NCBI GenBank assembly: GCA_913041665.1
Contig: CAJWKT010000002.1
Coordinates: 1 to 51,076 of the forward strand
Reading direction: 5' to 3'
DNA length: 51,076 nucleotides
Origin: an uncultured Gammaproteobacteria bacterium
Lineage (GTDB): Bacteria > Pseudomonadota > Gammaproteobacteria > Steroidobacterales > Rariloculaceae
Each line of letters starts with the position of its first letter. The first letter of the stretch is position 1. Shown here in pieces: positions 11,245-51,076 of the stretch. The translations under genes and the position numbers were made by a program. Under the pieces are notes generated by a model, which saw only the letters and a list, made by a program, of their open reading frames with translations, was not told the origin of the DNA and ran no database searches.

Positions 11245-12150
11245 CTAACCTCGGGGGTGATGTATGCTGTGCAGCTGTTTCATCCGCTCCTGAGCTATAT
11301 GCGTATAAATCTGCGTGGTCGATACATCGCTATGGCCAAGCAAAAGTTGTACTACTCTCAAGTCGGCCCCATTGTTTAAAAGGTGAGTGGCAAAAGCATG
11401 GCGAACCGTATGCGGAGAAAGCCTCTTAGTAATGCCTGCTTTAACAGAATAGCGCTTAATTAGTTGCCAGAACGCTTGACGGGTCATGTGAGCCCCTCTG
11501 CGGGTAGGAAAGAGGTAATCTGTCTGACGATGCAGAAGAATTTTCCCCCTGTACTCATAAAGATATCTTTTAAGCCAACTCTGTGCCTCCTCACCGAGCG
11601 GGACTAACCGTTCACGGTCTCCTTTACCGATGATCCTGATTACCCCTTGATTAAGGTTAATCTGGTTCATCTTTAGATTGATCAATTCTGACACGCGAAC
11701 GCCTGTTGCATAGAGCACTTCAAGCATCGTTCTATCACGGTACCCCAACGGTCGGGAAATATCGGGCGCTTTTGACAGCGCATCTATTTCTGCTTCAGTA
11801 AGGGACTGTGGCAATGACCGACCGATTTTTGGCATCACGACCTGACTGGTGGGATCCTCCTCAATCATGTCCTCACGGAGAAGATAACGATAGAACCTGC
11901 GAAAACTTGAGAGTTGGCGCGCAGCAGATCGGGGCTTTAATCCGCCCGCAGCTCTCCATGCCATATAGTCCATAATTTCGGCCTTTCCGGCGCGGACCAT
12001 AGTAACTCCTTGCTTAAGAAAAAATTTATTTAATGACAGTAGATCTGCGCGATATGCGTCAAGCGTGTTCTTCGATAGACCGCGCTCCATCCAAACTGTA
12101 TCTAAAAACCGGTCAATTAGGGTTTCCGAATTGTCCTGAAATCCTGACAC
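11245..12150 (-). CDS. xerD: Tyrosine site-specific recombinase XerD
   Basis: The N-terminus LIDRFLDTVWMERGLSKNTLDAYRADL is XerD-like. The catalytic region contains ATGVRVSEL, HTVRHAFATHLLNNGADLRVVQLLLGHSDVSTTQIYTH (R-H-R-Y tetrad context). Confidence 0.9.
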   Translation of the reverse strand: MSGFQDNSETLIDRFLDTVWMERGLSKNTLDAYRADLLSLNKFFLKQGVTMVRAGKAEIMDYMAWRAAGGLKPRSAARQLSSFRRFYRYLLREDMIEEDPTSQVVMPKIGRSLPQSLTEAEIDALSKAPDISRPLGYRDRTMLEVLYATGVRVSELINLKMNQINLNQGVIRIIGKGDRERLVPLGEEAQSWLKRYLYEYRGKILLHRQTDYLFPTRRGAHMTRQAFWQLIKRYSVKAGITKRLSPHTVRHAFATHLLNNGADLRVVQLLLGHSDVSTTQIYTHIAQERMKQLHSIHHPRG

Positions 12151-12355: not shown

Positions 12356-13090
12356 GTGAGCATGACTGCCGCACTAAAGGCTTCGAAACATACCATATAT
12401 GGCTGCTATGCCTGGCTCATCCTCGGTACTATCATAGTAGCCTGCACGGTAGCACTTTTCGTCACCCCAGGGCTTGGCCGTCGGCGTCATTTAGCGCATT
12501 GGGCAGCAAGGTTGTTTTTCTTTTTAGTAGGCTCTCCTGTCAAAGTCGAAGGCACCACTATTCGAGAATCTTGCGTGGTCATAGCCAATCACTCAAGCTA
12601 TCTGGATGGCATCATTCTCACTGCAGCACTGCCCCCCAAGTTCACCTACATAATCAAACAAGAGATGACAAAAATCCCCGTAGCCGGCTTTGTACTGCAG
12701 CGCCTAGGCTCAGAGTTTGTCAACCGGGAAAACGAACAACATCGAAACCGAGTAGCTCGCCGACTACTCAATGCAGCCCAATCGGGTGAGGCTTTAGTAT
12801 TCTTCCCAGAGGGAACTTTTGACGAAATTCCAGGCCTAAAAAGATTCAGATTAGGCGCGTTTGGTGCTGCTTGTCGGAGTCATAGACCTCTTTTCCCTGT
12901 AGTCATTTTTGGTGCTCGACAAAAACTACCGGCAAACACTTTTCTGCCATCGCCTGGGTCACTATCGGTCAGAATCTGTGATCCTCTGCATCCAGATGAA
13001 ACAATTTCGGCTGAGGTACTAATGCATCGCTCTAGAAAAATCATATTACAACACTTAAATGAACCGGACAGAGACCAGTCCAAGAAATAA
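12356..13090 (+). CDS. 1-acyl-sn-glycerol-3-phosphate acyltransferase family (PlsC-like) membrane protein
   Basis: It has an N-terminal TM segment. The acyltransferase HX4D motif is NHSSYLDG and block III is FFPEGT. Confidence 0.8.
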   Translation: MSMTAALKASKHTIYGCYAWLILGTIIVACTVALFVTPGLGRRRHLAHWAARLFFFLVGSPVKVEGTTIRESCVVIANHSSYLDGIILTAALPPKFTYIIKQEMTKIPVAGFVLQRLGSEFVNRENEQHRNRVARRLLNAAQSGEALVFFPEGTFDEIPGLKRFRLGAFGAACRSHRPLFPVVIFGARQKLPANTFLPSPGSLSVRICDPLHPDETISAEVLMHRSRKIILQHLNEPDRDQSKK

Positions 13091-36776: not shown

Positions 36777-37937
36777 TTGAGTCTTAAAACTTTAGAGCAA
36801 TTGGCCGATAATAAACTCAGGGAGCTGGGAGCCCTTGAGCTTAAGCGCAAACTCAGAATCACTGAGCGTAAGGCATTTGCCCGCACGTTACAGGAAGAAA
36901 AAAGGTTAGTAAGTTTCTCCTGCAATGATTACCTAGGTTTGTCTACCCATAAAGAAGTCATAGAAGCCAGCGTTAAAGCCACACGCCAGCATGGCACCGG
37001 GGCAGGTGCATCCCGCTTGATTACGGGCAATCACCCTTTATTTCAGACATTAGAGAAACGGCTGGCCCGCCTTAAAAACACTGACGATTCAGTGGTCTTC
37101 GGAAGTGGGTATTTAGCGGGTATAGGGGTCATTCCAACCTTAATTGGGCCTGACGACTTGATCCTCATAGATGAATTGAGTCACTCCTGCTTGAAAACAG
37201 GCGCTAAACTGACCGGCGGCCGGATATTAAATTTTAAGCATAATAATGTTCTGCATACGGAAGAGCTTTTGCGAAATTATCGTAGAAAACACCGGTACTG
37301 TTTATTAATTACAGAAAGCGTATTCAGCATGGAAGGTGATCTAGCGCCGCTGTCAGAGCTTTCCAAGCTCGCCATTCAGTTTGACGGTTGGTTGATGAGC
37401 GATGATGCTCATGGCCTAGGCGTGCTTGGGCACGGACGAGGTTCTGGTTTCACCCAAAAAGACCCAATAACGATTCCACTTCAGATGGGAACATTGTCGA
37501 AAGCCGCAGGTGCATATGGCGGATTCATTTGTGCGAGCCACCAAGTAACTAACCTAATTCGCAATAGAGCTCGCACTTTTGTTTACACGACTGGGCTACC
37601 TGCTGGCACTGTCGCTGCTGCTATTAAAGCCCTTGAAATCATTGAGAGAAATCCGATCCTCACAACCCTTCCTGTTAAGCGAGCGCAACTTTTCACTGAT
37701 GAACTCGGGCTACCACAGGCTAAGAGCGCTATCGTCCCGATTATTTTACACACTCCCGAGAGAGCGTTAATGGCTAGCCAATCACTGGAAAAAAAAGGAT
37801 TTCTCGTTACCGCCATTCGCCCACCGTCGGTTCCTCGAGGCACAGCAAGGTTAAGGTGCGCGTTCTCCGCAGCTCACTCGGAGAAAGATGTGCTTGAGTT
37901 CGCTTCAGCTATGCGGCCCTTACTAAAACCGCTATGA
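36777..37937 (+). CDS. bioF: 8-amino-7-oxononanoate synthase
   Basis: It uses a TTG start. The motifs FSCNDYLGL, GASRLITGN, DDAHG and PLP-lysine GTLSKAAG are present. Confidence 0.88.
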   Translation: MSLKTLEQLADNKLRELGALELKRKLRITERKAFARTLQEEKRLVSFSCNDYLGLSTHKEVIEASVKATRQHGTGAGASRLITGNHPLFQTLEKRLARLKNTDDSVVFGSGYLAGIGVIPTLIGPDDLILIDELSHSCLKTGAKLTGGRILNFKHNNVLHTEELLRNYRRKHRYCLLITESVFSMEGDLAPLSELSKLAIQFDGWLMSDDAHGLGVLGHGRGSGFTQKDPITIPLQMGTLSKAAGAYGGFICASHQVTNLIRNRARTFVYTTGLPAGTVAAAIKALEIIERNPILTTLPVKRAQLFTDELGLPQAKSAIVPIILHTPERALMASQSLEKKGFLVTAIRPPSVPRGTARLRCAFSAAHSEKDVLEFASAMRPLLKPL

Positions 37938-38605
37938 AGACATTTTTCATAACGTCCTCGGGCACAGAGATTGGAAAAACATTTGTGACGACCCTCCTTG
38001 CAACTCAGCTAACTCATTCGGGTTATCGCGTTCGTGCCCTGAAGCCCTTGGCAACAGGGTTTGATCCGGCACGCCCCGAAAATAGTGACAGCGATCTGTT
38101 GCTGAGGGCTGTTGACCTTCGGCTTGATGAAAAAAACCTAGCTAGAGTATCACCGTGGAGGTTCAGTGCAGCCTTGTCACCCGATGTGGCTGCAGAACTG
38201 GAAGGTCGCAACATCGACCTCCATGAACTCACCGACTTTTGCTTAAAGCAAGAGAACGCAGATGTTACTCTAATAGAAGGTATTGGTGGCGTTATGGTGC
38301 CACTGAATCAGGAACATACGGTACTGGATTGGATTCAGGCGCTAGGGGTACCGGTAGTCTTAGTTGTGGGTAGCTACTTAGGGACGTTAAGTCATGCACT
38401 GTCTGCAGCAGGCATGCTCCAGGCACGCGGTCAAACGATAGCCGGGGTTATTATTAGCGAATCCACCAACCAGCCAATGAAGGTCGAAAAAACCGCGTGG
38501 ACACTTGAGCGATTCCTTCACCCTATACCAATACAGATTTTACCTAGACTAGAAAGCCAAGAAGCCGCCCCAAACTTGCTAACGTTGCTAGATCTGCATC
38601 TCTAG
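37934..38605 (+). CDS. bioD: Dethiobiotin synthetase
   Basis: The P-loop is FFITSSGTEIGKTFVT and a later motif is IEGIGGVMVPL. It overlaps bioF by 4 nt. Confidence 0.88.
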   Translation: MKTFFITSSGTEIGKTFVTTLLATQLTHSGYRVRALKPLATGFDPARPENSDSDLLLRAVDLRLDEKNLARVSPWRFSAALSPDVAAELEGRNIDLHELTDFCLKQENADVTLIEGIGGVMVPLNQEHTVLDWIQALGVPVVLVVGSYLGTLSHALSAAGMLQARGQTIAGVIISESTNQPMKVEKTAWTLERFLHPIPIQILPRLESQEAAPNLLTLLDLHL

Positions 38606-38839: not shown

Positions 38840-39562
38840 TTACTTCTGAGCAATCCGTTGACGCGCACTGCTATTTACCAGACTAAGTTCCGCCCGGCGC
38901 TCCATAGCTAAACCATCTAAATCGCTTTCGTCTGAGCGGGAAAATTGCTCGCCATAAGAATCCAGGACAATACGACCCGAAGGTACACCAGCACGAATTA
39001 AAGCATCTTGAACCGCTAATGCACGATCAGCGGAAAGTTGTGCGTTGTACTCTACATTTCCCCGAGCGTCGGCAAATCCCTCTACACGAATCAACATCCC
39101 ATCCATATTAGCCAGCAATTTAGCCAGCTGCTCAAACCAATCCTGATTGATTTTGTCGAGATCGCTTTCTCCTGTTCTAAACAGTACTTGAACGCTCAAC
39201 ATTTGCTGCAGCGTATTCTGCATTTCTGCTGTGCCTTTTAGTAGTTCTGACTCAAGCCTAATCATTTCTTGTTCGCGCGTTTTAATACCGGCGTTTAAAA
39301 TTTCAGCCTCGTCCTTGAGCGCTTCCCAACGCTGCTCGAATTCCAACTTAGCTGTTTGCTCTTTATAGAACCTGTCTCCCAGCCAACTACCGAGGGCTGC
39401 GCCTAAAATAGACCCAACCGGACCACCAACGGAACCACCAAGAACTGCCCCGGTGCCAACCCCTATGCTTTCTTGTCTAGAAGGCGATCCTATTTCGTCT
39501 GCTAAACCCAAATCACTGATAGCAATCGTGCAAATCACAGTTAACAAAATGTATTTCATCAT
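38840..39562 (-). CDS. OmpA-like peptidoglycan-binding protein with signal peptide, glycine-zipper segment and coiled coil
   Basis: The signal peptide is MMKYILLTVICTIAISDLGLA. The glycine zipper is GVGTGAVLGGSVGGPVGSILGAALGSWLG. A heptad-rich region is KLEFEQRWEALKDEAEILNAGIKTREQEMIRLESELLK. The OmpA_C motif is RVEGFADARGNVEYNAQLSADRALAVQDALIRAGV. A strong SD (GGAGGAG) precedes the ATG. Confidence 0.8.
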   Translation of the reverse strand: MMKYILLTVICTIAISDLGLADEIGSPSRQESIGVGTGAVLGGSVGGPVGSILGAALGSWLGDRFYKEQTAKLEFEQRWEALKDEAEILNAGIKTREQEMIRLESELLKGTAEMQNTLQQMLSVQVLFRTGESDLDKINQDWFEQLAKLLANMDGMLIRVEGFADARGNVEYNAQLSADRALAVQDALIRAGVPSGRIVLDSYGEQFSRSDESDLDGLAMERRAELSLVNSSARQRIAQK

Positions 39563-39683: not shown

Positions 39684-40688
39684 TCAACGGGCCCGGCGAT
39701 GAGGAAGCGCAACAAAGGTGCCTCCATTTCTTTGGCAAAGCGCCCGCATAAGAATGGCGAATCGAGCAGCGGTTAACATGTCACCAGTGACCTCGAAAAG
39801 CACCGGAAAAGCTACGGCATGGATCCGTACCCGGCGCTCACCCCTCTCATCAGCGCGATTGCGGCGATCCACCTCCCTTACTACCCCATTGATCGACCCG
39901 GATGAAAAATCATCACTGTAAACATACAAGCTCACTCTTTTTTCAGGATCGTAGAAGCTCTCTATAGCGGTCAAGATGCCTTCTCTGGGGCTGGAGTTGG
40001 AGAATGCGTTCCAATTTCTCAAGGCATCCATGATCGCTTCCCGCCTAGCAGGCGTATCCGGAATCCACTCATTGCGGTAACTTTTAAACATATATTCGCC
40101 CATATCATTCAAAACCTGTATTCCTTTCACCTCAGGATAAACCTCGAGTGTTTCTTGCATCTGTTTCTGGACTCTATCCCAAGCGTACTGACGCATACTC
40201 CCCGAAGTATCAATGATAAAAACGATGTATTCGCTATCCACAGGTATACCGCCTATGTTGTAATCATCTGGATCCGGGCGGTAATCAGCTAACAGTCGCT
40301 GCATCTCCTCAGTCAGCCGTTGCTTAGCTAGCGCAAGCTGGCCTTGCAGTTCCGTATTGATGTCAGCGTTATCTCCAGTAGCCAAAAACTCGGAACGAAT
40401 TCTTGAGAGTTGTTCCTGTAAACGGGAGAGCTGTAAATTTTCTGAATCTAATTGCGTCACAGTAGAAATCTGCTCGCGCTCAACGATCTCGGTTTCTCCA
40501 CGGAGATCATTCAGTTCCTCCTGATAACGCGTAATCAATTCTTCAAGCTCTACATGACTCTCCTCAAGACGGATAGGCTCAAAAATCTTTGTTAAGACAA
40601 GCAAGAGAATGATAGCCCCAAAGCCACAGCATATTACGTCTAAAAAAGAAAGATTAAGTGTCTCCGTGTCGCGATCTTTTTTCCTCAT
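39684..40688 (-). CDS. ExbD/TolR-like TM anchor + coiled coil + vWA (MIDAS) domain protein, paralogue 2
   Basis: I prefer the start at nt 40688 (MRKKDRDTETLNLSFLDVICCGFGAIILLLVL). It has a GAGGA SD and forms an ATGA overlap with the upstream stop. The TM helix carries Asp17, as in ExbD/TolR/MotB. A coiled coil spans about aa 40-135. The vWA MIDAS motif is YIVFIIDTSGSM. Confidence 0.75.
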   Translation of the reverse strand: MRKKDRDTETLNLSFLDVICCGFGAIILLLVLTKIFEPIRLEESHVELEELITRYQEELNDLRGETEIVEREQISTVTQLDSENLQLSRLQEQLSRIRSEFLATGDNADINTELQGQLALAKQRLTEEMQRLLADYRPDPDDYNIGGIPVDSEYIVFIIDTSGSMRQYAWDRVQKQMQETLEVYPEVKGIQVLNDMGEYMFKSYRNEWIPDTPARREAIMDALRNWNAFSNSSPREGILTAIESFYDPEKRVSLYVYSDDFSSGSINGVVREVDRRNRADERGERRVRIHAVAFPVLFEVTGDMLTAARFAILMRALCQRNGGTFVALPHRRAR

Positions 40689-41782
40689 GGCCAATCCTCT
40701 GAAGGTGCCATCATGGATCCACCAGTAGTTAGCGAGAGCTGCCAATAAGCCGGCGCGGCCAAAGGATCCCCCTCCATCGCATAGAGAATCACATTCACCG
40801 GAATATTCAGGGGCAGCCGGCGAACAGCTCGTTCAAAATGATTAACTCGCTCCCTACTAGTTACGCCTGCCTGCGCCGGTACAACCTCACCCATAGTTGG
40901 TAGGCCATCTACAAGCAGATACAAATTATCGGGCTTTGGGTCTAAGGTTCTAGCAACGTCCATTGCCGCATGCAGGCTAGTCGGGCCTTCTGGTGATGTA
41001 TCTTTAAGTACCTGAACCGCCGCATCTAATTGGGCGCCATTCTCAACGGTAAGCCAGCGCCCGCCGGTACCATCCAACAACGGCCAAGCTTCTTTGTTAA
41101 AAGCATAAATCTGAAATTGGATACCGGGCGGAATCTGGGTAGTAAGCCAGTCCACCGTATTGACTACTTGTTGCCATTTGGGTGCCTGCAGTCTTTGCTC
41201 CACTGGCATATTGCGCCGCCGAATAATATTTACGATGGTACGATCCAGCATGCTTGTAGAAGCGTCTACTAAAATCAGTACGCGCTGCCCGCCCATTCGC
41301 AAGCCTGTTAAATACTGTCTATTCCCGTCACCCGTGAAACTACGAATACGGTTCCCCGCATCTTCCGGCGTAACGCTAGCCGCCGACAGCCTTTCATTTT
41401 CTTCTCTTAGATCATCAAGCTCTGACCTTAGTCGCTCGATAGCTTCTTTGCGAGTGCTTGTCTCTTCAGTTACAGAATTTAGCTCATTTTCTGTACTAAG
41501 AATTTCTTTCATAACCTCATCTCGCATTCCGGCCAGCACAGCCATATCTTTGATAAGCTTGGCTAGCTCATCCTTAAGTTGAACTAGATTTTTCTTTCCT
41601 GAAAGTACTCTTAACTCCATGCGGTCTACTTCACTACCAAGATCATCGAGCTCAAGCTTACTGCGCTCAGAGACATTGGCGTTAATCACCATGAAGAATA
41701 AAATGACTGCACCGAATCCACAGGTCATGGCGTCCAGAAAAGATAAGGAAAATACGTTTATCTTTTTACGAGCCACAATCAT
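40685..41782 (-). CDS. ExbD/TolR-like TM anchor + coiled coil + vWA (MIDAS) domain protein, paralogue 1
   Basis: The N-terminus is MIVARKKINVFSLSFLDAMTCGFGAVILFFMV. Compare ExbD INVTPFIDVMLVLLIIFMV. Asp17 lies in the TM helix. A coiled coil spans about aa 45-135. The vWA MIDAS motif is RVLILVDASTSM. Confidence 0.75.
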   Translation of the reverse strand: MIVARKKINVFSLSFLDAMTCGFGAVILFFMVINANVSERSKLELDDLGSEVDRMELRVLSGKKNLVQLKDELAKLIKDMAVLAGMRDEVMKEILSTENELNSVTEETSTRKEAIERLRSELDDLREENERLSAASVTPEDAGNRIRSFTGDGNRQYLTGLRMGGQRVLILVDASTSMLDRTIVNIIRRRNMPVEQRLQAPKWQQVVNTVDWLTTQIPPGIQFQIYAFNKEAWPLLDGTGGRWLTVENGAQLDAAVQVLKDTSPEGPTSLHAAMDVARTLDPKPDNLYLLVDGLPTMGEVVPAQAGVTSRERVNHFERAVRRLPLNIPVNVILYAMEGDPLAAPAYWQLSLTTGGSMMAPSEDWP

Positions 41783-43148
41783 TTCCTACGCTTATTACCC
41801 ACAACTCCTCACCAGGTGAACCGATACGAATGACATCTGCGGGACGCAGTGTGGTTTCAGCCGAAGCTCTCTTTTCGTTTACAAATGTCCCGTGACGACT
41901 GTGATCAATAAGCTTGACCTCACCATCACGCAAGACCAATTCACAATGTGAGCCAGAAACACCACTATGGTCTCCCTCAAGCACGATAGAGCGACGCTCT
42001 TTATCTTTAGTACGGCCAATTGATAGCCCCTCAGCATCCACGGGATATGCAATTCCCTTATAAACCACATGACTCGAACTGGCGTCTGGAGTTTTCTCTG
42101 AATCCTGAAAAACGTTTTTATCAACTGCAACCTGAGCCTGTTCACGCCATGGCACCCGCTTTAGCAGTTTGACCTGACCGCTTTTAGACTCAGCGGCTGG
42201 CATAGCTAACGCACCCATCACGGGTGCATCGGGTCCTAAACTCAACACAAGCGCATCATCTAAACGTTGTAATTCAGTCATTAGCCCAGGTAGTAAACCA
42301 AGATGGTGGGAAACCTGTACAACGAGACCAGCCCCACCTTGCCTAACCTGAGCTACTAGTTGCACCAGTGCACGATAAAAACCTGATGCGGCTGCCAACA
42401 GCTGCTCCCGCCGAACTTCAATCCGATGAATATCTTGGTAATGCTCCAGTTCGAATTCACATACATCTTTCTCTTGTATCGACTGTAGCCAACCCGGTAG
42501 GTAATCATATATAAGCTGCTCAGTATCAGCTCGATGAAGAGGGTCAAAGCGTGTTGCAAGAACGAAAAGCTCTGAAAACCGCTGGGCCCAAAGATCCATA
42601 ACACTTATCAGGCCAGTATTTTCCAGACCAATTTCTTGTAACGCCATTACGCTATCGCTCTGCTCTAATGGCGTCACAGAGACTCGGTGTAAGCCAACAT
42701 CTAGGTGAACAAGCTGCCGGCCCGGGTACGGTCGTGCGCTGACAGCAGCGGCTGAGCTTAACATCCCACTCACCCGAATTCCGATCTCTTGAGTTAACCC
42801 AAGTAATACACCCAATTGCTCGCGCGTGTAGTGATTCGGCACTATCAGAACAACATCGTCTGATTTATCCGCAATTTGGGTCCACAACGTTTTGAGCTGA
42901 GCATGAGCAAGTTCCGAGGCACTATCAATCCCTTCTACGCCCGCGGTATTACTGCCTACGCTCAAATTAGTCCAATAACGGCTACTCACCTGACTAGGCT
43001 TAACACGTGCTTGTCGAAGCGCCTCAGTGCCAGTGATAATGCGCCCATCCTCTACTAGCGCATAACCAGGCTCTCTAGCCAATACTTCCCCTTCGTGGGC
43101 AACCACCAGGCTTGCGTCATTGATGTCGATTGCGAGCGTGGCCATCAA
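41766..43148 (-). CDS. Degenerate Hsp70/actin-fold domain fused to a C-terminal FHA domain
   Basis: The N-terminal 350 aa follow the Hsp70 nucleotide-binding-domain motif order with degraded loops. These are LAIDINDASLVVAH, VVLIVPNHYTREQLGVLLGLTQEIGIRVSGMLSSAAAVS, LVHLDVGLHRVSV and VVQVSHHLGLLPGL. The C-terminal FHA is canonical: SIGRT...VSGSHCEL...LIDHSRHGTFVN...LRPADVIRIG. Confidence 0.7.
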   Translation of the reverse strand: MMATLAIDINDASLVVAHEGEVLAREPGYALVEDGRIITGTEALRQARVKPSQVSSRYWTNLSVGSNTAGVEGIDSASELAHAQLKTLWTQIADKSDDVVLIVPNHYTREQLGVLLGLTQEIGIRVSGMLSSAAAVSARPYPGRQLVHLDVGLHRVSVTPLEQSDSVMALQEIGLENTGLISVMDLWAQRFSELFVLATRFDPLHRADTEQLIYDYLPGWLQSIQEKDVCEFELEHYQDIHRIEVRREQLLAAASGFYRALVQLVAQVRQGGAGLVVQVSHHLGLLPGLMTELQRLDDALVLSLGPDAPVMGALAMPAAESKSGQVKLLKRVPWREQAQVAVDKNVFQDSEKTPDASSSHVVYKGIAYPVDAEGLSIGRTKDKERRSIVLEGDHSGVSGSHCELVLRDGEVKLIDHSRHGTFVNEKRASAETTLRPADVIRIGSPGEELWVISVGNDCGS

Positions 43149-43164
43149 TCAACTCTTGGAAATT

Positions 43165-43968
43165 TCAAGCTCCCCTAGTCTGCATGTGGCGAATTAAATT
43201 GTGGTCGACGTGAGTTTGAGCATCAAAAATGAAACGTTCCTGTAAAAGCTGTAGCTGATGGACAAGAAACATCACAACAATAGAAATCAAAAGCGCAATA
43301 AAAGTGGAGTTAAATGCGGTACCCAAGCTCTGGGTTACCCCCGCGATATCTCCATCTACAGCGCGGTGTGCCTGACCCAAAGCCTCACCGATTCCGCGCA
43401 CTGTTCCAATAAACCCCACAGAAGGTATAGCCCAAGCGATATAACGAATCATGGAAAGCTCGGACTCCAATCGTTCACCTTCCGACTCACACAAATTAGT
43501 TGCCACCGAGGATACATCTTGCACGTTACGTGTGGACCCAAACCGTTCAAGCGAAGAAAGCATGACCCTAGGAAGCAACATCTCTCTCAAACGCTCAGGA
43601 AGAGATTGAATGTTGCGAGCATACTCCCTTGTATCCTCCGGAAGAATGCGCACGCCCTCTTGAACTCGGACAAATTCTTGCTGCAAAAGAGCTCGTTCCT
43701 TAAGCGCCCGAAACGCTTTATAGCCCATAATGCAGAACGCCCAAATCATCAAAATAAAACAAGATTCCTGCTCGAAGTCCCGAATAATCACCCACACAGA
43801 GCGCTCTGGCGTGTAGTTTTCTTCTTGCTCAATACGTAGTATCTGCTCGGCCGCCACAGCAGCCGCTTTAGGCCTGACCACCGTAACGTAGACCGCATGC
43901 ACCACGATGATTGCGATAATTAGCGCAAACACTTGATAAACAAACTCAGCTGGAAAACGACGTTTCAT
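43165..43968 (-). CDS. MotA/TolQ/ExbB-family proton-channel protein
   Basis: 267 aa. Two N-terminal TM segments and a cytoplasmic loop are followed by the family signature IPSVGFIGTVRGIGEALG. Compare ExbB/TolQ P-lGL-GTV-GI. A final helix pair is AFNSTFIALLISIVVMFLV. A GGAGG SD is present. Confidence 0.8.
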   Translation of the reverse strand: MKRRFPAEFVYQVFALIIAIIVVHAVYVTVVRPKAAAVAAEQILRIEQEENYTPERSVWVIIRDFEQESCFILMIWAFCIMGYKAFRALKERALLQQEFVRVQEGVRILPEDTREYARNIQSLPERLREMLLPRVMLSSLERFGSTRNVQDVSSVATNLCESEGERLESELSMIRYIAWAIPSVGFIGTVRGIGEALGQAHRAVDGDIAGVTQSLGTAFNSTFIALLISIVVMFLVHQLQLLQERFIFDAQTHVDHNLIRHMQTRGA

Positions 43969-43992: not shown

Positions 43993-44208
43993 CTAAATAT
44001 CTATAGGAAAAATAACTTCTTCATCAGCTGCAATCTCTTCCGAGGGAATAAAGACATCAGTGTTTGGCGGGGTCCTTTCTGACTCAGGCTCCACCCTCGG
44101 GGGAGGTATCGCCTCCTCCACTTCTTGCTCATCTTCCTGGCCTAGCCCCAATGACAATAGACTCAGCAAGCTCCCCAGCACAAACACCCTAATCTTAAAA
44201 TTGATCAT
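43993..44208 (-). CDS. Small secreted acidic, proline-containing protein (71 aa)
   Basis: The signal-like N-terminus is MINFKIRVFVLGSLLSLLSLGLG. It is followed by an acidic/Pro-rich tail, QEDEQEVEEAIPPPRVEPESERTPPNTDVFIPSEE. It sits in a 290-nt slot between two operon genes. I see no obvious SD, so coding status is uncertain. Confidence 0.4.
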   Translation of the reverse strand: MINFKIRVFVLGSLLSLLSLGLGQEDEQEVEEAIPPPRVEPESERTPPNTDVFIPSEEIAADEEVIFPIDI

Positions 44209-44252: not shown

Positions 44253-46718
44253 TCATTCCAGATTACGCGCAATACGAAAACCGAGGTCCTCTCGGGCACT
44301 ACCATTGTAGTCTCGGTAGGCAAGCCGAAGATTCGTCAGGGTAGCGCTAGTCCAGCTAGAACCTCGAACCACATGTAAACTACCAATTTCAGGGCCCAGA
44401 GGATCCTTGACGACTCCCTCTACGCCGATAGTCGCAATTTCATAGTAATCCTGCATCCATTCTGAAACATTGCCACCGAGATCAAAAAAACCAAGGAGAC
44501 TGGGCCCGAAACTCCCTACTGGCGCTGCTACCTGAAAGCTATCGTTATAAGTGATTAGTGTCGTTCTTAACAACTGAGAGGCACTAACATCAGCATAATT
44601 GCCGGTGCGATCCGGGGGAGGGAGCTCAGCTCCCCAAGGATAGATTAGAGCTTCCTCCCTTTCTGCAAATCGCGAAGCCCAGGCCCATTCAGCCTCTGTG
44701 GGCAAACGATAACCGTTGCGCACTGGACGTACCAATACCCGAGTTCCCTGCCGCTCCTCATATGCAGGCTGAAATCCGTCAGTAATGCTGAGCCAGTTAA
44801 GAAATTGCGCAACTTCTCCCCAAGTCACCCTCACCACAGGCTGATCATCTTCATCTAAAGAAACACCCGAAAAAGATCCCGAATTGTGTTCAGGTTTGAA
44901 CTTCCTGAATTCCGCGTTACTGACTTCCCGAGCACCTAGATAGAAAGCTGTACTTAACCTAACTGTGCGCATTGACTCATTTGAGCGGCGCCCTTGTTCG
45001 CGCCGCGATGAACCCATAATGAATTCACCTGGCAAAACAAGCAATAAATCCTGGCCTAAACTGGTCTCAACAACCTTTGGGTAACCGCTGCCAGTCGTGA
45101 CATCCAATTCCTCCAACTTAAACTCTAAGATTTGAGGAAAACCAGGACGAGGCGTTATCTCCACAGACTGGCTCGCAAAACCAGGATAACCAATTTCCAG
45201 CTGATGACTTATTGCCATAAGCATTAAACGAGTAGGTGTATTACCTTGGCGCTCACCATCAACCCAAATAGCTGCACCAGTTGGTTCGCTATTGATGCCT
45301 ACCTCACCCAATTGTGCAACTAGGTTGATATCCAGCTCCTGTTGACTATCAGCTGCAACGGACAATACCTGCATGACGGGATCGTAGCCTGGCTTAGTGA
45401 GTCCAATCTGATGATCTCGATCCGGAAGCAAGCCTAAAGTGAGGGGGGTTCGACCGCGATACTTTCCATCAACACTCACGACCGCATCAGCTGGATTGCT
45501 TGTAAGCTCCAATTGACCATCAGCCGGAGAAAGCATCACTAGCGGTAGCTCTAGAGGTTGGTCTGCATTCACTAAAATTGTGCTTTTCCAAATATTGAAC
45601 CCCTCGAGTCTTGCCTCAATTCGTCGTTCTCCAGCTGCTAGCTCCATGACTAAAGGCGTCCCTCCAAGGGACACGTCGTCTACAAAAACCCGTGCACTAA
45701 CCGGTTCAGTGATCAAAGTCACTGGTGACCAATTCGGCGTGAGCACGGCAGACATATTTTGTCTTTCACCTCCCCCAATGACCTCAAATTCTCTGATTTC
45801 TGATAAATATCGATCAGCCATAAACTCAAATCGGCGCAATCCAGTAGAAACCTCTGCATCCACTAGCGGCGCACTACCGAGCAGCTGGCCATCCACGTAG
45901 ACATCTGTATCTAAATTTGAATCAACCGAAACACTAATTAGCCCTGGTAGTCTCTTTAAAGAAAGTTCAAACGATTGATCCGGAGACAGTCCGACGTCGA
46001 TTTCAGTCTCCAAAGTGTGATATCCCAAAAGTGTAGCACTAATGCGATGCGTGCCGAAGCGAAGCAAATAGCGATCTGCAAGCTGGAGTTTGAAAAATGT
46101 ACCGGGAAGACTAACGGCTTCAGGTTGGGGCGTAAACACGAGCTGAACAGACTTAGCTGTAAATGCAAACCATCCGACAACAGCTAGCGTAACTAATCCA
46201 CTCCCCACTCCTAAAAACCTCTTGCTAGGTCTAAAAAAATGACTATCAGTTTGCTCTTTTAGCCTAGGACGAAACGCAACTGGTGCAATCTCAATATCAC
46301 CAAGGTCATCCGATTCCCTTGCTAGTTCCTCTAGGTCCGGCGGCACCGTATCACTACCCGTAACCTGAACATCAATCATAAGGCTCAAACGATTGCTCGA
46401 AAGCGTGCAGCTTAATCGAGCTGTGTCCAGAGCAATAATATCTCCATCCCGTAGCCAACGTGACCCAGATAATAGCTCTCCATTTATGCGAAGCCCGTTA
46501 GTATCTCGAGCTGGCAAAACGAAAAAAGCTTCATCTAACATGTCTATTTGTAAGGAACCGGAAACGTTGTTTAATCTCACATCGTCGGAAGGATTACCCC
46601 CTAACGAAACCGGAAGATGGTTAGCAGAAAAATATTTTTCTTGTCCACCTTCGGCCAAACACAACACCCATTTTTTACCATTACCGATCATTACGACTAA
46701 TTGATCCGTTCCACACAA
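44253..46718 (-). CDS. FHA - TM - PEGA repeats - FGE-sulfatase(SUMF1)-like domain protein
   Basis: A divergent N-terminal FHA spans aa 10-105 (LPVSLGG...TNGLRINGELL...LRDGDIIAL). One TM segment spans aa 168-187. There are four clear PEGA-like repeats plus one degenerate (VYVDGQLLGSAPL, VFVDDVSLGGTPL, VSVDGKYRGRTPL, IWVDGERQGNTPT). The C-terminal FGE-sulfatase motifs are VRVTWGEVAQFLNWLS, GYRLPTEAEWAWAS, GNVSEWMQD and VVRGSSW. The start may instead be M10 (nt 46691), 5 nt after the upstream stop. Confidence 0.8.
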   Translation of the reverse strand: MCGTDQLVVMIGNGKKWVLCLAEGGQEKYFSANHLPVSLGGNPSDDVRLNNVSGSLQIDMLDEAFFVLPARDTNGLRINGELLSGSRWLRDGDIIALDTARLSCTLSSNRLSLMIDVQVTGSDTVPPDLEELARESDDLGDIEIAPVAFRPRLKEQTDSHFFRPSKRFLGVGSGLVTLAVVGWFAFTAKSVQLVFTPQPEAVSLPGTFFKLQLADRYLLRFGTHRISATLLGYHTLETEIDVGLSPDQSFELSLKRLPGLISVSVDSNLDTDVYVDGQLLGSAPLVDAEVSTGLRRFEFMADRYLSEIREFEVIGGGERQNMSAVLTPNWSPVTLITEPVSARVFVDDVSLGGTPLVMELAAGERRIEARLEGFNIWKSTILVNADQPLELPLVMLSPADGQLELTSNPADAVVSVDGKYRGRTPLTLGLLPDRDHQIGLTKPGYDPVMQVLSVAADSQQELDINLVAQLGEVGINSEPTGAAIWVDGERQGNTPTRLMLMAISHQLEIGYPGFASQSVEITPRPGFPQILEFKLEELDVTTGSGYPKVVETSLGQDLLLVLPGEFIMGSSRREQGRRSNESMRTVRLSTAFYLGAREVSNAEFRKFKPEHNSGSFSGVSLDEDDQPVVRVTWGEVAQFLNWLSITDGFQPAYEERQGTRVLVRPVRNGYRLPTEAEWAWASRFAEREEALIYPWGAELPPPDRTGNYADVSASQLLRTTLITYNDSFQVAAPVGSFGPSLLGFFDLGGNVSEWMQDYYEIATIGVEGVVKDPLGPEIGSLHVVRGSSWTSATLTNLRLAYRDYNGSAREDLGFRIARNLE

Positions 46719-48217
46719 AAAATTTCAATCGGGCTTAGCGTACTCCCCGGCAATACTTCAAAAACGACACGCACATCTCGGTACCCAGCCCGGCTTCCCA
46801 GGGCTGTATATGGTCCAGGACGAATCTGCACGTGGTGGGTAATGAAGCTGCCTAGAGAGCCTACACGGTACAAAGTTACATTGGTGAGCTCATCAGAACG
46901 CAGTTCCACATCGATTGGCGTGGAGGCTAAACGGACCAGCCTGCCAAGCTCAGCAATCTGTCCGTTCAATCGTGGCCCCCTTCCATCTATTCCACGCGCA
47001 TCCTCCAAAAGAATGCCTGCATCTTTCAAAATTTGGTCGGCAAAAAGAACATCTGGGTTTCGGAAAAGACCTTCAAATTTGGCATCCAAGTCAGTCCTGG
47101 CCCGGGCGCGAGAAAGTCCTATCTTGGCAAATTCAAGGGAATCATCAGAATTTAATGCGAGAAGATATTGCTGAATAGCACGGTCCCATAACTCTCTTTT
47201 CTCAAAGGCAGTGGCCCGGACCTGCGCAAGAGCAATCTGCTCCAACCTTATACCCTGGTCTGCCTGAATCAATCCATCTAAAGCTTCCAAAGAATCAGGG
47301 CGCATCTTCAGTGCATCAGTAAAAAATTGATGGGCCTCTTCAAATTCCTCTTCGGCCAAAGCATTCAGTGCCACAGAAACCAGTGAGTCAAATCTAGCAT
47401 CGGCGATGCGACGAGTCGCGTTGGCTACAGCCAATCTGGCAGGGATCCAAAGCGAGTCAAGAATCGCCGCATTACGGTAAAGCTCTAGGGCACTAACGAG
47501 GTCACCGTTCTGGTCTCGCTCTGCACCCTGCTCCATATGAGCCAACACGTTGGGTAATATTTGTGCTCTTTCTAATCCACTCTGACTATCAACATGGTCC
47601 GCTTCTATACGTAAAACTAACTGAAACTGCTCCGCCGCTAGAGATGGATTGCCGGCAGCAAGGGCCTCATTACCTGCTTCTAAAGCTCGGTCAATAATGT
47701 TTTTAGACCTAGCAAGCAAAGAAATTCCTAAATCGAGCGCTGCTTGGTAGCTAGGCACAGCATCATAAAAGGCATCTGCTAAAAAAGCGTCATCGCCATC
47801 CCGAAACAATGTCTGATAAAGATCCCAATCCTCACCAGCCCAATTTGCTGCACCCTGCGCCTCTAATAGGCCCTGCTGTTGCAATAGTTCAGCTAGCAGC
47901 GCCTCGGCCTTATCGCGCAAAATGTCCAGTTCTTCGGGTGACATTACCAAAACCCCTGAATTTGACTCAGAAGGAGGTGCAGATTGCTCTACCATTTCGG
48001 TAGTGGGTACCTGCTCTGCTACCCAACTAGGCAGCAAAAAGATCACTCCCAATGCCAAGGACGCCAAAACGATTAATGCTGAAACAACTAATTTAAAGCT
48101 ATAGTTCCGATCCTTGCTATCCAACGACGTGGACGCAACAAAATTTTCCTTTATACCGGACCTGACCGGAACAATGGTTTCATCATGTTCTGGTTGGTTA
48201 GAATTCTGTTTTTTCAC
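46697..48217 (-). CDS. Single-pass membrane protein with TPR-like helical repeats and a C-terminal beta (PEGA-like) domain
   Basis: It has a GTG start with a GGAG SD. A cytoplasmic tail of about 40 aa precedes the TM segment FKLVVSALIVLASLALGVIFLL. The long Ala/Leu-rich helical repeat region contains AGNEALAAGNPSLAAEQFQLVLRIEADH and EEAHQFFTDALKMRPDSLEAL. The C-terminus reads IRPGPYTALGSRAGYRDVRVVFEV. Confidence 0.7.
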   Translation of the reverse strand: MKKQNSNQPEHDETIVPVRSGIKENFVASTSLDSKDRNYSFKLVVSALIVLASLALGVIFLLPSWVAEQVPTTEMVEQSAPPSESNSGVLVMSPEELDILRDKAEALLAELLQQQGLLEAQGAANWAGEDWDLYQTLFRDGDDAFLADAFYDAVPSYQAALDLGISLLARSKNIIDRALEAGNEALAAGNPSLAAEQFQLVLRIEADHVDSQSGLERAQILPNVLAHMEQGAERDQNGDLVSALELYRNAAILDSLWIPARLAVANATRRIADARFDSLVSVALNALAEEEFEEAHQFFTDALKMRPDSLEALDGLIQADQGIRLEQIALAQVRATAFEKRELWDRAIQQYLLALNSDDSLEFAKIGLSRARARTDLDAKFEGLFRNPDVLFADQILKDAGILLEDARGIDGRGPRLNGQIAELGRLVRLASTPIDVELRSDELTNVTLYRVGSLGSFITHHVQIRPGPYTALGSRAGYRDVRVVFEVLPGSTLSPIEIFCVERIN

Positions 48218-48230
48218 AACTCCGCCGATG

Positions 48231-49121
48231 CTATCGCCAAAATGCTATAACTGATTCTAAGACATCTAAAAAAACATGCATGCTCTTTGGGCGGCGACTT
48301 GGGTCTGGTCCCAGCGTTGCGTGAACCAATTCAGCCAGCTCAGAAAATGCCGAACTACTGTCCGATGGGCCTAAGGGGAGTGCTGGGGGCCCTGGACACA
48401 CCAACGAGGGACTAACACCGAATGGTAAACAGCCTGTAATGAGTTCATAGAGCAACGCCGCAAACGCATACATATCATCAGCCACTGCTGGCACCTCACC
48501 CCGGCGGTGACCCGGGCTCTGATAAGCCGGTGTCCCTCCACCTTTTAAAGTTCGGCAATTTAGAGGCTCCGCCAAGGCAAAATCTACTAGGTACGCTCCC
48601 TGGTTACTATCAAAGAGAACATTGCGTGGCTTAACGTCAAGATGGACCATGCCTTGATTGTGAATATATTCCAATGCACTAGCCAAATCTCTAGCCGCAC
48701 CCGCCCAACAACGAGGATGGGCTCCGCATAGAGATACCAAATCCCCTTCACCTAAATATTCCGTTATTAATGCTGGGCTCCCGCCCAGAGTAATCAAGTC
48801 AATCACTACTGATACGCAAGGATGATTCAGAGAATTGAGAATTTCGAACTCACGACGAATCAATTCTTGGGCACCAAAGTCTCGGATCACATCCGATCTT
48901 GGTAGTTTGATAGCCACGACACCCCCATCCGGAGCTTCTGCCCTCCATACTTGTGACATACCACCAGCCCCGAGAAATGCAATGAGACGAAACCCTCCTG
49001 ATAAAATACTACCTGGTAGAAGGACCTCCTGATGATGGGTGTTTCTCAGAATATCGGCCGAAACTACATTAGCAAAGCCTAGTTCATTCTGGTTAATAGT
49101 ACGCTTATAAATAGTACCCAT
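48231..49121 (-). CDS. Soluble Hanks-type Ser/Thr protein kinase (non-RD, DFA variant)
   Basis: The Gly loop is LGAGGMSQVW and the catalytic Lys is in VVAIKLPR. The catalytic loop is HLDVKPRNVLF (HRD changed to HLD). The metal loop is DFA instead of DFG. The P+1 region is GTPAYQSPG. There is no TM segment. Confidence 0.85.
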   Translation of the reverse strand: MGTIYKRTINQNELGFANVVSADILRNTHHQEVLLPGSILSGGFRLIAFLGAGGMSQVWRAEAPDGGVVAIKLPRSDVIRDFGAQELIRREFEILNSLNHPCVSVVIDLITLGGSPALITEYLGEGDLVSLCGAHPRCWAGAARDLASALEYIHNQGMVHLDVKPRNVLFDSNQGAYLVDFALAEPLNCRTLKGGGTPAYQSPGHRRGEVPAVADDMYAFAALLYELITGCLPFGVSPSLVCPGPPALPLGPSDSSSAFSELAELVHATLGPDPSRRPKSMHVFLDVLESVIAFWR

Positions 49122-49159: not shown

Positions 49160-50503
49160 TCAGGTGTCAGTCGCTACACCTGTATCGACCGCCTCCAAAT
49201 TCATGTCCTCGTTTTGGCCCACTGATTCGCTACCTGACGTAGTCTCGGGAACTGCGATAAGTTCCAATTCACTTGGTGGGGGTTCCGTATATATCGACAT
49301 ATCTGCAGGCAGAAGCCCAGTCTCTGAGACAAATAGATCTTTTAATAATTGACGCCATTCCTGATATTGCACATCTGCCGTTCCCGTCAGACGATGTTGT
49401 GTACCCTCAATCTCTACCACCATCGGCCTGACTTCATCATCGAAGCTGCTAGAAAGCTCTTCGAGGGTTTCTTCGTGTAAACGCTTCTCCTGCTTTCGGA
49501 TAGCACCAGTCTTAATCATATCCATCCCCATGTACATCAAGGCATCCCGCACCATACGATCTGAGAAACCATCACCATCACTTTGGCTGCCATAGACTAC
49601 GGAAGCCACCACTGTTGCTATACCAAGACCGGTCCGCCACCGAGTGGATCGGTGCAATTCCTTTATGGCAATTGCCTCTTCACGTGAAAATTGGCGCCAT
49701 CCATCATAAGACTCAATGGAATCTTGATAGAACTGATCGTAATGCTGGTTCAAGGTTTCCACAAACAAATGTTCTCGCTCTCGAATCCGCTGGGTCCGAC
49801 CAAACATTGGATCTCCTTCAGCAGGTAAGCGCCTAAGCTCATATTCCCCCCGATTGCTCTGAACAACGTGCTCTCCAAAAACCTCCGGACTTAGCTCTCC
49901 CGCAAAACGCAGCTGGGCTATAGACCTGATTTTCTCGGCCTCGTTGACAGCCAACTTCCCCTGTACCGTTGCCAAGTCGTTTGCGATAGAGCTAAAAACA
50001 TCCTGATAAGGATCCAAACCCCCAAATCTTTGCCGGTTGTAGGCCCCGGCTGCAGTACCCATACCATATTCACCATCCAACCAAACGCGACCGGAAGCAT
50101 CAACGGCTTTCACATACAGCAAAAACTCATCCCCATCGGATCTCAGAATCTCAGCCATAACATTGACATCTGCCGCAGTGGAGGCTGAGGGCGTAACCCA
50201 TACCGCACCCCAATGACCACTCTTCTGCAGCGTGTCTCTCAGGGTCACTGCCATATAACGAGCCTCGGTTCGGCGAATGTAAATGAAAGTGCCATCTCTA
50301 ATAAGCTCCTCCAAAATCTCTTTATCCACCTCACCTTCGGGAACCCCCGAACCAAAAACAGCTATACCAACGTCGAGCAGCTGCTCTTCCGGAATAGACC
50401 GGGTGGCAGGTACCAAATCGACCGAGTGAGCTAAGCGAACCTCATTACTTGTGCATCCCGAAATAAGTCCCGCTACCACAAAAAGAAAATAAATCACCCG
50501 CAT
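49160..50503 (-). CDS. Lipoprotein of unknown function (447 aa)
   Basis: The lipobox is in MRVIYFLFVVAGLISGC. I recognise no domain. There is an internal hydrophobic stretch (GLGIATVVASVVYG) and an acidic Ser/Thr-rich C-terminal tail. Confidence 0.7.
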   Translation of the reverse strand: MRVIYFLFVVAGLISGCTSNEVRLAHSVDLVPATRSIPEEQLLDVGIAVFGSGVPEGEVDKEILEELIRDGTFIYIRRTEARYMAVTLRDTLQKSGHWGAVWVTPSASTAADVNVMAEILRSDGDEFLLYVKAVDASGRVWLDGEYGMGTAAGAYNRQRFGGLDPYQDVFSSIANDLATVQGKLAVNEAEKIRSIAQLRFAGELSPEVFGEHVVQSNRGEYELRRLPAEGDPMFGRTQRIREREHLFVETLNQHYDQFYQDSIESYDGWRQFSREEAIAIKELHRSTRWRTGLGIATVVASVVYGSQSDGDGFSDRMVRDALMYMGMDMIKTGAIRKQEKRLHEETLEELSSSFDDEVRPMVVEIEGTQHRLTGTADVQYQEWRQLLKDLFVSETGLLPADMSIYTEPPPSELELIAVPETTSGSESVGQNEDMNLEAVDTGVATDT

Positions 50504-50519
50504 AGAAAGCTACCTCACT

Positions 50520-51076
50520 TCACTGGCGAGCCAGAATTTTATTGTATTCGTTATATTCTTCCCACAGAGCTGCACGAAGAAATGGATCCTCTTCCTCGGT
50601 TGCCGCCTCACACAATTGGCGCGCAACTGTATCGTCGTCCTCACAACCTTCCACTAATGGCGTTGTTTCTTCATTCGTGGTTTCGTCAGCGCGAAAAGAT
50701 TGATTTTCCCTGCTATTACTGGAATCTCCGCCGCCGCTTTGGCCTACGGGGACATCAGGAGAACCTCCAACCTCTGCTGTTTGGCCCAAAATCTCATCTG
50801 CAGCCGTACCTATGCCAGCACGTGCCATAGATGCCCGCTCTGCACCCATAATCCGATCAAAATCCTCAAGGGAACGATCAAATTCGTCGTCGCCACCTCG
50901 ACCTTGCTGGCCTGCACCTGCCTGAGTTCCCTCAGGCCAGCTGCCGGTCTGACTACCCGCTGTTTGCTCTTCGCCCTGCTGACCAGACTGGCTACCCGGT
51001 GGCATCTGAGGGCCACCCGCTGTTTGCTCTTCGCCCTGCTGACCAGACTGGCTACCCGGTGGCATCTGAGGGCCAC
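50520..51076 (-). CDS. Gly/Gln/Ser/Glu-rich tandem-repeat protein with an acidic C-terminal domain; the 5' end probably lies outside the window
   Basis: The reading frame is open through the window edge. The codons upstream of the first listed Met read GPQ and continue the repeat. A 20-aa unit, MPPGSQSGQQGEEQTAGGPQ, occurs twice exactly. The C-terminus is DDTVARQLCEAATEEEDPFLRAALWEEYNEYNKILARQ. Confidence 0.6.
   Translation of the reverse strand, partial: GPQMPPGSQSGQQGEEQTAGGPQMPPGSQSGQQGEEQTAGSQTGSWPEGTQAGAGQQGRGGDDEFDRSLEDFDRIMGAERASMARAGIGTAADEILGQTAEVGGSPDVPVGQSGGGDSSNSRENQSFRADETTNEETTPLVEGCEDDDTVARQLCEAATEEEDPFLRAALWEEYNEYNKILARQ
50955..51076. repeat. Perfect 60-bp tandem direct repeat (at least 2 copies, truncated by the window end), in frame within the CDS
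   Basis: Positions 50955-51016 are identical to 51015-51076, which is 62 nt at a 60-nt period. The unit is ccgctgtttgctcttcgccctgctgaccagactggctacccggtggcatctgagggccac. Confidence 0.95.

Follow-up and report, generated by a model that had tools for sequence, protein, structure and literature searches.

A stretch of 51,076 nucleotides (nt) from an uncultured gammaproteobacterium of the Rariloculaceae (contig CAJWKT010000002.1 of assembly GCA_913041665.1; in the following, the window) carries on its minus strand the gene of a protein that combines an FHA-fold domain, a single transmembrane helix, an array of PEGA repeats and a C-terminal domain of the formylglycine-generating enzyme (FGE)-sulfatase type. 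We found this gene, here called the target gene, in a conserved cluster together with genes for a TolQ/ExbB-like channel and a pair of vWA proteins. We propose, with a probability of about 0.5, that its product is a non-catalytic, bitopic inner-membrane subunit of the envelope machine encoded by this cluster. An earlier reading, made from the sequence alone, had treated the gene as a stand-alone sensor and had missed the constant motor cluster around it. The component domains are already known and the motor was predicted in 2025, whereas the constant association of the target with the motor, the additional partners and the kinase/FHA layer appear to be new in the literature searched.

Association with a TolQ-like/vWA motor cluster

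Synteny was counted over 19 loci with long flanks, and the conserved cluster surrounds the target gene in every one of them. The genes for a transmembrane protein with TPR-like repeats, for the TolQ-like channel and for both vWA proteins were each present in 19/19 loci, those for a predicted lipoprotein, for the first protein of the cluster and for a separate FHA protein each in 18/19, and those for a Hanks-type kinase and an OmpA-like protein in 12/19 and 7/19, respectively. The target gene adjoins the TolQ-like gene in 19/19 loci. All cluster neighbours share the minus strand of the target, and the order reads protein of unknown function, lipoprotein, kinase, transmembrane TPR protein, target, 71-amino-acid (aa) peptide, TolQ-like channel, FHA protein, two vWA proteins and OmpA-like protein. 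The same gene order was found in distant genomes at 35-41% identity, in one close relative (L081) and in 80 metagenome loci; the metagenome loci were found with an alignment of five sequences, an alignment of 14 sequences being too divergent.

A motor of this kind was described in 2025, in which a tolQ homolog is tightly coupled to a heterologous pair of transmembrane-tethered vWA proteins (PMC12204202). The TolR-like transpore helix of these vWA partners bears a proton-binding Asp, and a 5:2 motor of uncharacterised function was predicted (PMC12204202). The cluster reported here likewise contains a tolQ-like gene and paired vWA genes with an Asp-bearing transmembrane helix, and neither a tolR/exbD gene (no ExbD/TolR match) nor a MotB gene was found in it.

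The kinase and the FHA domain of the target are more variable companions. Among the loci reaching far enough upstream, 27 have both the FHA domain and the kinase, three have the FHA domain without the kinase, one has the kinase without the FHA domain and 16 have neither. Thus, the kinase is absent from 16/17 FHA-less loci, and the motor cluster is kept there. A naive Fisher test of this association gives p of about 1e-8, a value inflated by shared ancestry. In a neighbour-joining tree built from the PEGA region, the forms with the FHA domain come close to a single clade, Fitch counts on this tree amount to two changes for the FHA domain and five for the kinase, and the tree holds one joint loss (L130), three kinase losses with the FHA domain kept and one kinase without FHA domain. 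Because the transmembrane, PEGA and FGE-like parts are kept with the motor regardless of kinase and FHA domain, their primary role would lie in the machine, and phospho-signalling cannot be what the PEGA-FGE part primarily serves. The link to Thr-phosphate signalling suggested by the sequence-only reading is plausible, given the Hanks kinase two genes upstream and the fact that kinase and FHA domain largely occur together.

At E<=1e-30, an exhaustive HMMER scan of 1.84 billion representative sequences returned 1554 proteins; after clustering at 50% identity, each of the top 150 clusters had a score above 420 bits. More than 130 clusters at 50% identity share the architecture of transmembrane helix, PEGA array and FGE-like domain. 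About 70 of them comprise proteins of roughly 800 aa with the FHA domain, and 50-66 comprise proteins of roughly 690 aa with only a short cytoplasmic tail ahead of the helix. Hence, of the FHA-PEGA-FGE arrangement read from the window, the membrane-anchored PEGA-FGE part is widespread, but about half of the family lacks the FHA domain. All named source taxa are Gammaproteobacteria (Candidatus Rariloculaceae, Porticoccaceae, SAR92, OM182, Pseudomonadales and Lysobacterales). The window sequence is present in many seawater and marine metagenomes, and short contigs of it occur in two RNA-type runs. The architecture is thus a common one, and the family is abundant but unstudied, its members carrying no other annotation than 'PEGA domain-containing protein' or, in error, FGE.

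Domain composition of the target protein

The open reading frame (ORF) at 44253..46718 on the minus strand is uninterrupted, as had been reported, but a start at TTG 46718 would place its first 22 nt inside the upstream gene. The next start, the ATG at 46691, lies nine codons past the TTG and 5 bases beyond the upstream stop, and initiates a product of 812 aa instead of 821 aa. Because of the overlap of the TTG form and because almost all of the 120 orthologs listed are 808-812 aa long, ATG 46691 is the likelier start judging from the sequence. The database copy of the protein (P0001) also has 812 aa. Residue numbers below refer to the 812-aa form, and equal those of the earlier reading minus 9, unless marked as 821-aa numbering. 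The features of the gene are as follows.

44253..46691, minus strand: target gene, 812 aa (ORF, translation, ortholog lengths, database copy P0001)
46368..46664, minus strand: FHA-fold domain, predicted cytoplasmic, aa 10-108, without phosphothreonine-binding residues (AlphaFold2 (AF2) model, Foldseek, residue census)
46218..46367, minus strand: disordered, predicted cytoplasmic linker, aa 109-158, with the motifs TGGDTAPPDLEEL and IxPxxF (predicted local distance difference test (pLDDT) <50, invariant residues in close orthologs)
46158..46217, minus strand: single transmembrane helix, aa 159-178, ending WFAFTAKSV (hydropathy 1.91, flanking charges, AF2 helix 166-178)
45951..46154, minus strand: degenerate, membrane-proximal PEGA-like sandwich R1, aa 180-247 (AF2 strands, repeat HMM)
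45111..45947, minus strand: four PEGA repeats R2-R5, aa 249-527 (Pfam, repeat HMM, pLDDT mostly 85-93)
44265..45053, minus strand: FGE-sulfatase/SUMF1-type domain, aa 547-809, predicted non-catalytic (Pfam PF03781, PDB sequence matches)
44313..44366, minus strand: RGSSWTSATLTNLRLAYR, in place of the FGE catalytic loop with its Cys (HMMER alignment with human FGE)

Both domain types that the sequence-only reading placed outside are backed by hidden Markov models (HMMs). Over residues 556-818 of the 821-aa form, the C-terminal head matches the Pfam family FGE-sulfatase (PF03781) with E 2.2e-38, scoring 132.8 bits where the cut-off is 23.3. Its closest PDB matches by sequence are human FGE (1e-19), PorK (7e-14), TvpA (5e-13), which is labelled a variable protein of a diversity-generating retroelement (DGR), and PvdO; the best NCBIfam match is GldK (TIGR03525; E 8.6e-26), at 91 bits against a cut-off of 350. 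The motifs RLPTEAEW, GNVxEW, RGxSW and GFR are retained. With a top-residue frequency of 0.60, compared to 0.44-0.46 for the PEGA repeats, the head is the best conserved region of the family.

In the HMMER alignment, C336 and C341 of human FGE correspond to Ser and Leu in the target, and none of 139 relatives has a Cys at either catalytic column, so that the loss of the catalytic Cys pair noted from the window extends to the family. The further description of the head as cysteine-free is true of the window protein and 29 close orthologs, which have no Cys after the transmembrane helix, but this is a detail of the clade, as a single non-catalytic Cys is retained by 116/139 wider relatives, in the helix W..A..yCNWLS. 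In the window protein and its clade, Leu takes this position (residue 631, window about 44797-44799). Since the catalytic pair is absent, a non-catalytic binding domain is a reasonable reading of the head.

The PEGA array was detected by Pfam (PF08308) in four stretches with E 1.4e-40, and an HMM built from the repeats of the target places the units at 249-318, 320-387, 390-458 and 459-527. In the full-length AF2 model, residues 180 to 528 form five beta-sandwiches in a row, the block pLDDT being mostly 80-93. The first of these, R1, has a block pLDDT of about 73-85, a weak CarboxypepD_reg-like match and only weak similarity to the repeat HMM (E 0.013 to 7e-5), and it is present in all orthologs tested at about 180-246. 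The four or five repeats counted in the sequence-only reading thus resolve into four clear ones and one degenerate one.

Hydropathy indicates exactly one transmembrane segment (159-178), and the full-length model has disorder at 110-165 and a helix at 166-178. Because there is a single such segment, flanked by three Lys/Arg on the N-terminal and one on the C-terminal side, and because the hydropathy scan found no N-terminal signal peptide in the target protein, an orientation with the N-terminus inside and the C-terminus outside is probable. This supports the layout given by the sequence-only reading, in which the FHA domain would be cytoplasmic and the PEGA and FGE-like domains would lie outside. 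In the linker, PP is kept in 64-69/81 wider relatives, and the IxPxxF motif is retained in the FHA-less forms of the family. We considered TGGDTAPPDLEEL as a phosphosite of the pTxxD or TxPP type; however, the Thr (T115) is kept in only 35/81 relatives while the PP is kept, which makes it a weak lead only.

The FHA assignment is convincing by the predicted fold alone, sequence-level proof having failed. An AF2 model of the region, calculated from an alignment of 24 orthologs, reached a pLDDT of 91.6, and 50/50 Foldseek matches listed from the PDB were FHA domains or FHA-containing proteins (TM-score 0.5-0.66). The best match was the FHA domain of EssC (5fwh; E 1.9e-4), and others were KIF13A/B, Ki67 and, at TM-scores of 0.6-0.66, GarA/OdhI. 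At the level of sequence, the Pfam FHA model (PF00498) gave a sub-threshold 17.8 bits (gathering score 20.7) over half of its length, the profile of 24 orthologs matched the FHA domain of KIF13B in the PDB with an E-value of only 1.8, hhalign assigned 3.6% probability to a relationship with the canonical FHA domain of the neighbouring protein, and a precomputed FHA match was absent from all of the 120 orthologs listed.

The divergence of this domain, recognised from its SGSL and from the lack of Arg after the conserved Gly, was confirmed in the window and in a census of 81 FHA-bearing representatives. At the phosphothreonine-contact sites the window protein reads GG for GR and SGSL for SxxH, and TNG is present. 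None of the six commonest residues at the GR position across the representatives is Arg. The Ser of the SxxH site varies, Ala occupies the place of its His in 57/81, and the Asn of NG is unconserved. The FHA domain of the target is thus without the phosphothreonine-contact residues family-wide.

Cluster partners and the role of the target protein

The neighbours of the target in the window, in the order given above, are the following.

50520-51076, minus strand: first cluster gene, cut by the window end (L081 ortholog 369 aa)
49160..50503, minus strand: predicted lipoprotein of outer-membrane type, lipobox LISGC, Thr at +2 (sequence, signal-like hydrophobic start)
48231..49121, minus strand: Hanks-type Ser/Thr kinase (Pfam Pkinase E 9.7e-28)
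46697..48217, minus strand: transmembrane protein with TPR-like helical repeats (one transmembrane helix at aa 43-61, weak TPR matches)
43993..44208, minus strand: small, predicted secreted acidic protein, 71 aa, with the conserved C-terminus ...FIPSEEIAADEEVIFPIDI (ORF, L081 ortholog 12484-12693)
43165..43968, minus strand: proton channel of the TolQ/ExbB/MotA family (Pfam MotA_ExbB E 2e-13)
41766..43148, minus strand: predicted cytoplasmic protein with an N-domain of ~350 aa and a canonical C-terminal FHA domain (IGR, SGSH; Pfam FHA E 6.9e-13)
40685..41782, minus strand: vWA protein 1, with a TolR/ExbD-like Asp transmembrane helix, coiled coil and vWA domain (LSFLDAMTCGFGA motif, weak VWA matches)
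39684..40745, minus strand: vWA protein 2, a paralog (LSFLDVICCGFGA motif, Pfam VWA E 4.8e-5)
38840-39562, minus strand: OmpA-like protein with glycine zipper, following the cluster in the window clade only (7/19 loci; profile matches)

The visible N-terminal part of the first gene product is a low-complexity repeat, PPGSQSGQQGEEQTAG, which occurs twice, and conservation in this protein is restricted to the C-terminus, ...EEDPFLRAALWEEYNEYNKIL. The lipoprotein has no Pfam or NCBIfam match. The kinase has HLD for HRD and DFA for DFG, with Gly-rich loop, VAIK Lys and catalytic Asp/Asn all in place; from these motifs it appears to be active, as a kinase of the non-RD type. A PP2C phosphatase gene was not found in the cluster. 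In eight loci (L001, L003, L005, L127-L129, L133 and L136) the kinase is fused to the transmembrane TPR protein in a receptor-type kinase ORF (e.g. L001 7734-9995, L003 7641-9980), and in 25 loci, including the window, the two are separate genes. Because they are fused in eight distant loci, the two proteins probably act together.

In most of the related loci inspected, ORF extraction revealed a short reading frame of about 55-145 aa in the gap that separates the target from the MotA-family gene. The encoded peptide has a signal-peptide-like start, an acidic low-complexity middle and the strongly conserved C-terminus F.P[ST]E.[IV]..D..[VI].FP.DI-COOH, without a match in any family library scanned; the FGE-like head or the MIDAS sites of the vWA proteins may bind it as a ligand or cargo. 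The TolQ and ExbB matches of the channel in NCBIfam are below their cut-offs. The neighbouring FHA protein retains GR and SxxH, and its N-domain has no Pfam, NCBIfam or PDB sequence match. In 5/12 kinase-less loci the tblastn match is confined to the N-terminal part of this protein, which may indicate that its C-terminal FHA domain was lost or strongly diverged there. Both vWA proteins begin with ...[SA]F[LI]D..CGFGA..., a transmembrane helix with an invariant Asp (LSFLD...GFGA in the cluster of the window); in every locus inspected the two paralogs have [SA]F[LI]D..GFG with this Asp. vWA protein 2 likely starts at ATG 40688 (ATGA overlap, 334 aa, as in the L081 ortholog) and not at TTG 40745. 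Among family models, the OmpA-like protein comes nearest to the sortase-associated PdsO (124 bits; cut-off 152) and to ZorB.

The ORFs scanned in the rest of the window (1-38605) carry metabolic, transport, regulatory or recombinase domains, with the following landmarks.

1020-1106: tRNA-Leu(CAA)
11245-12150: XerC/D-type recombinase
22805-24970: TonB-dependent receptor
37934-38605: BioD-like gene (identified by eye)

An ECF-type sigma factor, amidohydrolases, metallo-beta-lactamase-fold proteins, DsbC, an AFG1-like ATPase and proB-like and aminotransferase genes are also encoded there. Among the ORFs scanned, which were those of this window only, no type VI secretion system (T6SS), PP2C, TagS/T-type, sulfatase or DGR reverse-transcriptase domain was found.

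Together with the domain data, the composition of the cluster leads us to infer a docking of the target on the motor, a partner of its head and a direction of regulation. The transmembrane helix would anchor the protein in the inner membrane beside the motor, the five PEGA-type sandwiches would form a stalk or pillar across the periplasm, and the FGE-like head, a C-type-lectin fold, would bind a fixed partner near the outer membrane. Candidates for this partner are the cluster lipoprotein, the small secreted peptide, the head of a vWA protein or an envelope glycan. A degenerate FHA fold would have been gained on the cytoplasmic side, together with the Hanks kinase, in a large clade to which the window belongs. 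This domain would most likely serve as a phosphothreonine-independent adaptor that puts the machine under the control of Thr phosphorylation, and the neighbouring canonical FHA protein would be the actual phosphothreonine reader.

Several observations weigh against the assignment of the target as a motor subunit, or limit it. The synteny loci were all chosen via the target protein, hence motors lacking the target would have escaped; a homolog search with the vWA protein returned close orthologs only. An unusually conserved transmembrane helix, as in TonB/TolA, was expected and had to be rejected, as its top-residue frequency is 0.37 compared to 0.44-0.46 in the PEGA repeats. An SHLS motif with an essential His marks force transducers of the TonB/TolA type (PMC12204202), and no such His is found in the transmembrane sequence of the target, FLGVGSGLVTLAVVGWFAFTA. 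The FGE domain has a pLDDT below 50 in the full-length AF2 model, which is unusable for pocket or interface analysis. Finally, about one joint gain and one joint loss suffice to explain the association of FHA domain and kinase.

The receptor function originally suggested, in which the head senses a periplasmic ligand like TagR and the cytoplasmic FHA domain relays the signal to or from the Ser/Thr kinase of the operon, is compatible with a machine subunit, and the two are not mutually exclusive; as an account of the main role of the protein, however, we consider it rather doubtful. It draws on the target lying two genes away from the kinase on its upstream side and from the canonical FHA protein on its downstream side, on the concordance of FHA domain and kinase in 27 + 16 loci against four discordant ones, and on a parts list resembling TagQ/TagR/PpkA/Fha1 (lipoprotein, COG1262 protein, kinase, FHA, vWA; PMC13584744), and the loss of catalytic residues makes binding by the head likely. 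Yet about half of the family has neither FHA domain nor kinase and still has the motor cluster, the FHA domain lacks any phosphothreonine-contact residue, and its association with the kinase is essentially one evolutionary event. Furthermore, the kinase has its own membrane or periplasmic partner in the transmembrane TPR protein, to which it is fused in eight loci, and the FGE-like head need not sense. The analogy to TagR rests on the shared domain family COG1262 only; no T6SS domain was found in the window ORFs scanned.

It is unlikely that the head is instead an active enzyme of the FGE/EgtB/PvdO superfamily which modifies a periplasmic substrate such as the small secreted peptide. The superfamily does include enzymes that do not use the FGE Cys pair, weak NCBIfam matches to PvdO, SenA and EgtB were obtained, no part of the protein is better conserved than the head, and the peptide with its invariant C-terminal motif is encoded directly downstream. 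The scores are, however, far under the cut-offs (PvdO 50 bits against 500, EgtB 22 against 360), the Cys pair is absent and no DinB-type or other catalytic partner domain was detected. Substrates of FGE carry the sulfatase motif CxPxR, from which the motif of the peptide differs, and no sulfatase gene is among the window ORFs scanned. Even less probable, in our view, is a Zorya-like motor-based anti-phage system with the target as envelope sensor. The MotA-family protein has a weak ZorA match (E 0.008), the kinase matches defence-kinase models (PD-T4-6 2.8e-38, Mad6) and the adjacent OmpA protein matches ZorB models; but the kinase matches are generic to the Hanks domain and the OmpA gene is present in only 7/19 loci. 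Neither the target nor the lipoprotein, FHA protein or small peptide of its cluster had a PADLOC match, and PADLOC assigned no defence system to the cluster, which contains no nuclease or other effector gene, and the other window ORFs scanned have the metabolic, transport, regulatory or recombinase domains mentioned above.

Returning to the target as a machine subunit, it may be speculated, as a tentative model of the whole, that the cluster encodes an undescribed proton-driven machine. A rotating TolQ-like/vWA motor would work against a fixed PEGA-FGE pillar that holds the outer-membrane lipoprotein or the peptide, with a receptor-type Hanks kinase as a clade-specific switch acting via the degenerate FHA domain and the canonical FHA partner. 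If true, this would be a 5:2 motor gated by Thr phosphorylation and distinct from Ton, Tol, Mot, Agl-Glt, the type IX secretion system (T9SS) and Zorya. The motor gains a constant partner set, consisting of the PEGA-stalk/FGE-head protein, an outer-membrane-type lipoprotein, the transmembrane TPR protein and a small secreted peptide, and a kinase/FHA control layer would be added in one widespread clade of marine Gammaproteobacteria. This turns a motor of unknown function into a concrete parts list with testable contacts, and adds a further example of the reuse of the FGE and FHA folds as interaction modules that are probably non-catalytic and independent of phosphothreonine.

Comparison with known systems

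The closest correspondence is to the TolQ-like/TPH-vWA motor reported from Proteobacteria (PMC12204202), whose description fits the three genes downstream of the target; the difference lies in the target itself, an extra constant neighbour that is undescribed there. In the parts of this paper and its supplements available to us, a PEGA protein, an FGE protein, a kinase or an FHA domain is nowhere mentioned in the context of the motor, and no link between a PEGA/FGE protein and a TolQ-like/vWA motor was found in the literature searched. Compared to the TonB/TolA transducers, the periplasmic part of the target consists of PEGA and FGE-like domains, with no TonB_C match and no Pro-rich or helical domain II.

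In the H1-T6SS of Pseudomonas, the periplasmic TagR (COG1262) and an outer-membrane lipoprotein work together ahead of a Hanks kinase and an FHA protein (PMC13584744). The FGE family is shared with the target, where the domain forms the head of a membrane-anchored multidomain protein. TagR, however, is encoded in a T6SS locus with tagQ/S/T, ppkA, pppA and fha1, whereas the target belongs to a motor cluster. The functional FGEs (human SUMF1 and bacterial FGEs) have the same Pfam domain and are the closest solved structures by sequence (1e-19), but both of their copper-binding catalytic Cys are replaced throughout the target family. The N-terminal FHA domain of EssC in the type VII secretion system is a phosphothreonine-independent FHA fold, cytoplasmic and at the N-terminus of a membrane-machine subunit, a layout that the target would share; there is no relationship at the sequence level, and the rest of the protein is unrelated.

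The proposed machine subunit gains precedents from GltG, with its FHA-transmembrane layout on a TolQ-like pentamer, and from PorK, with its FGE fold in a motor-driven machine. GltG of the Agl-Glt gliding machinery of Myxococcus has an N-terminal cytoplasmic FHA domain, a single transmembrane helix and a long periplasmic part, and is encoded with, and predicted to bind, the TolQ-like AglR pentamer (PMC11761067). It thus resembles the target in its layout and in its TolQ-like neighbour, the contact of the target with its motor being putative, but it ends in a TonB-C-like domain after disordered linkers, is without PEGA array or FGE-like head and has shown no sequence homology to the target. PorK/GldK of the T9SS differs in being an outer-membrane lipoprotein that forms rings with PorN, while the target is predicted to be anchored in the inner membrane, has a PEGA stalk and an FHA N-terminus, lacks a lipobox and T9SS genes and reaches only 91 of 350 bits. 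What PorK/GldK and the target would have in common is an FGE-sulfatase fold without FGE activity, used as a structural part of an envelope machine that is driven by a proton-motive-force motor.

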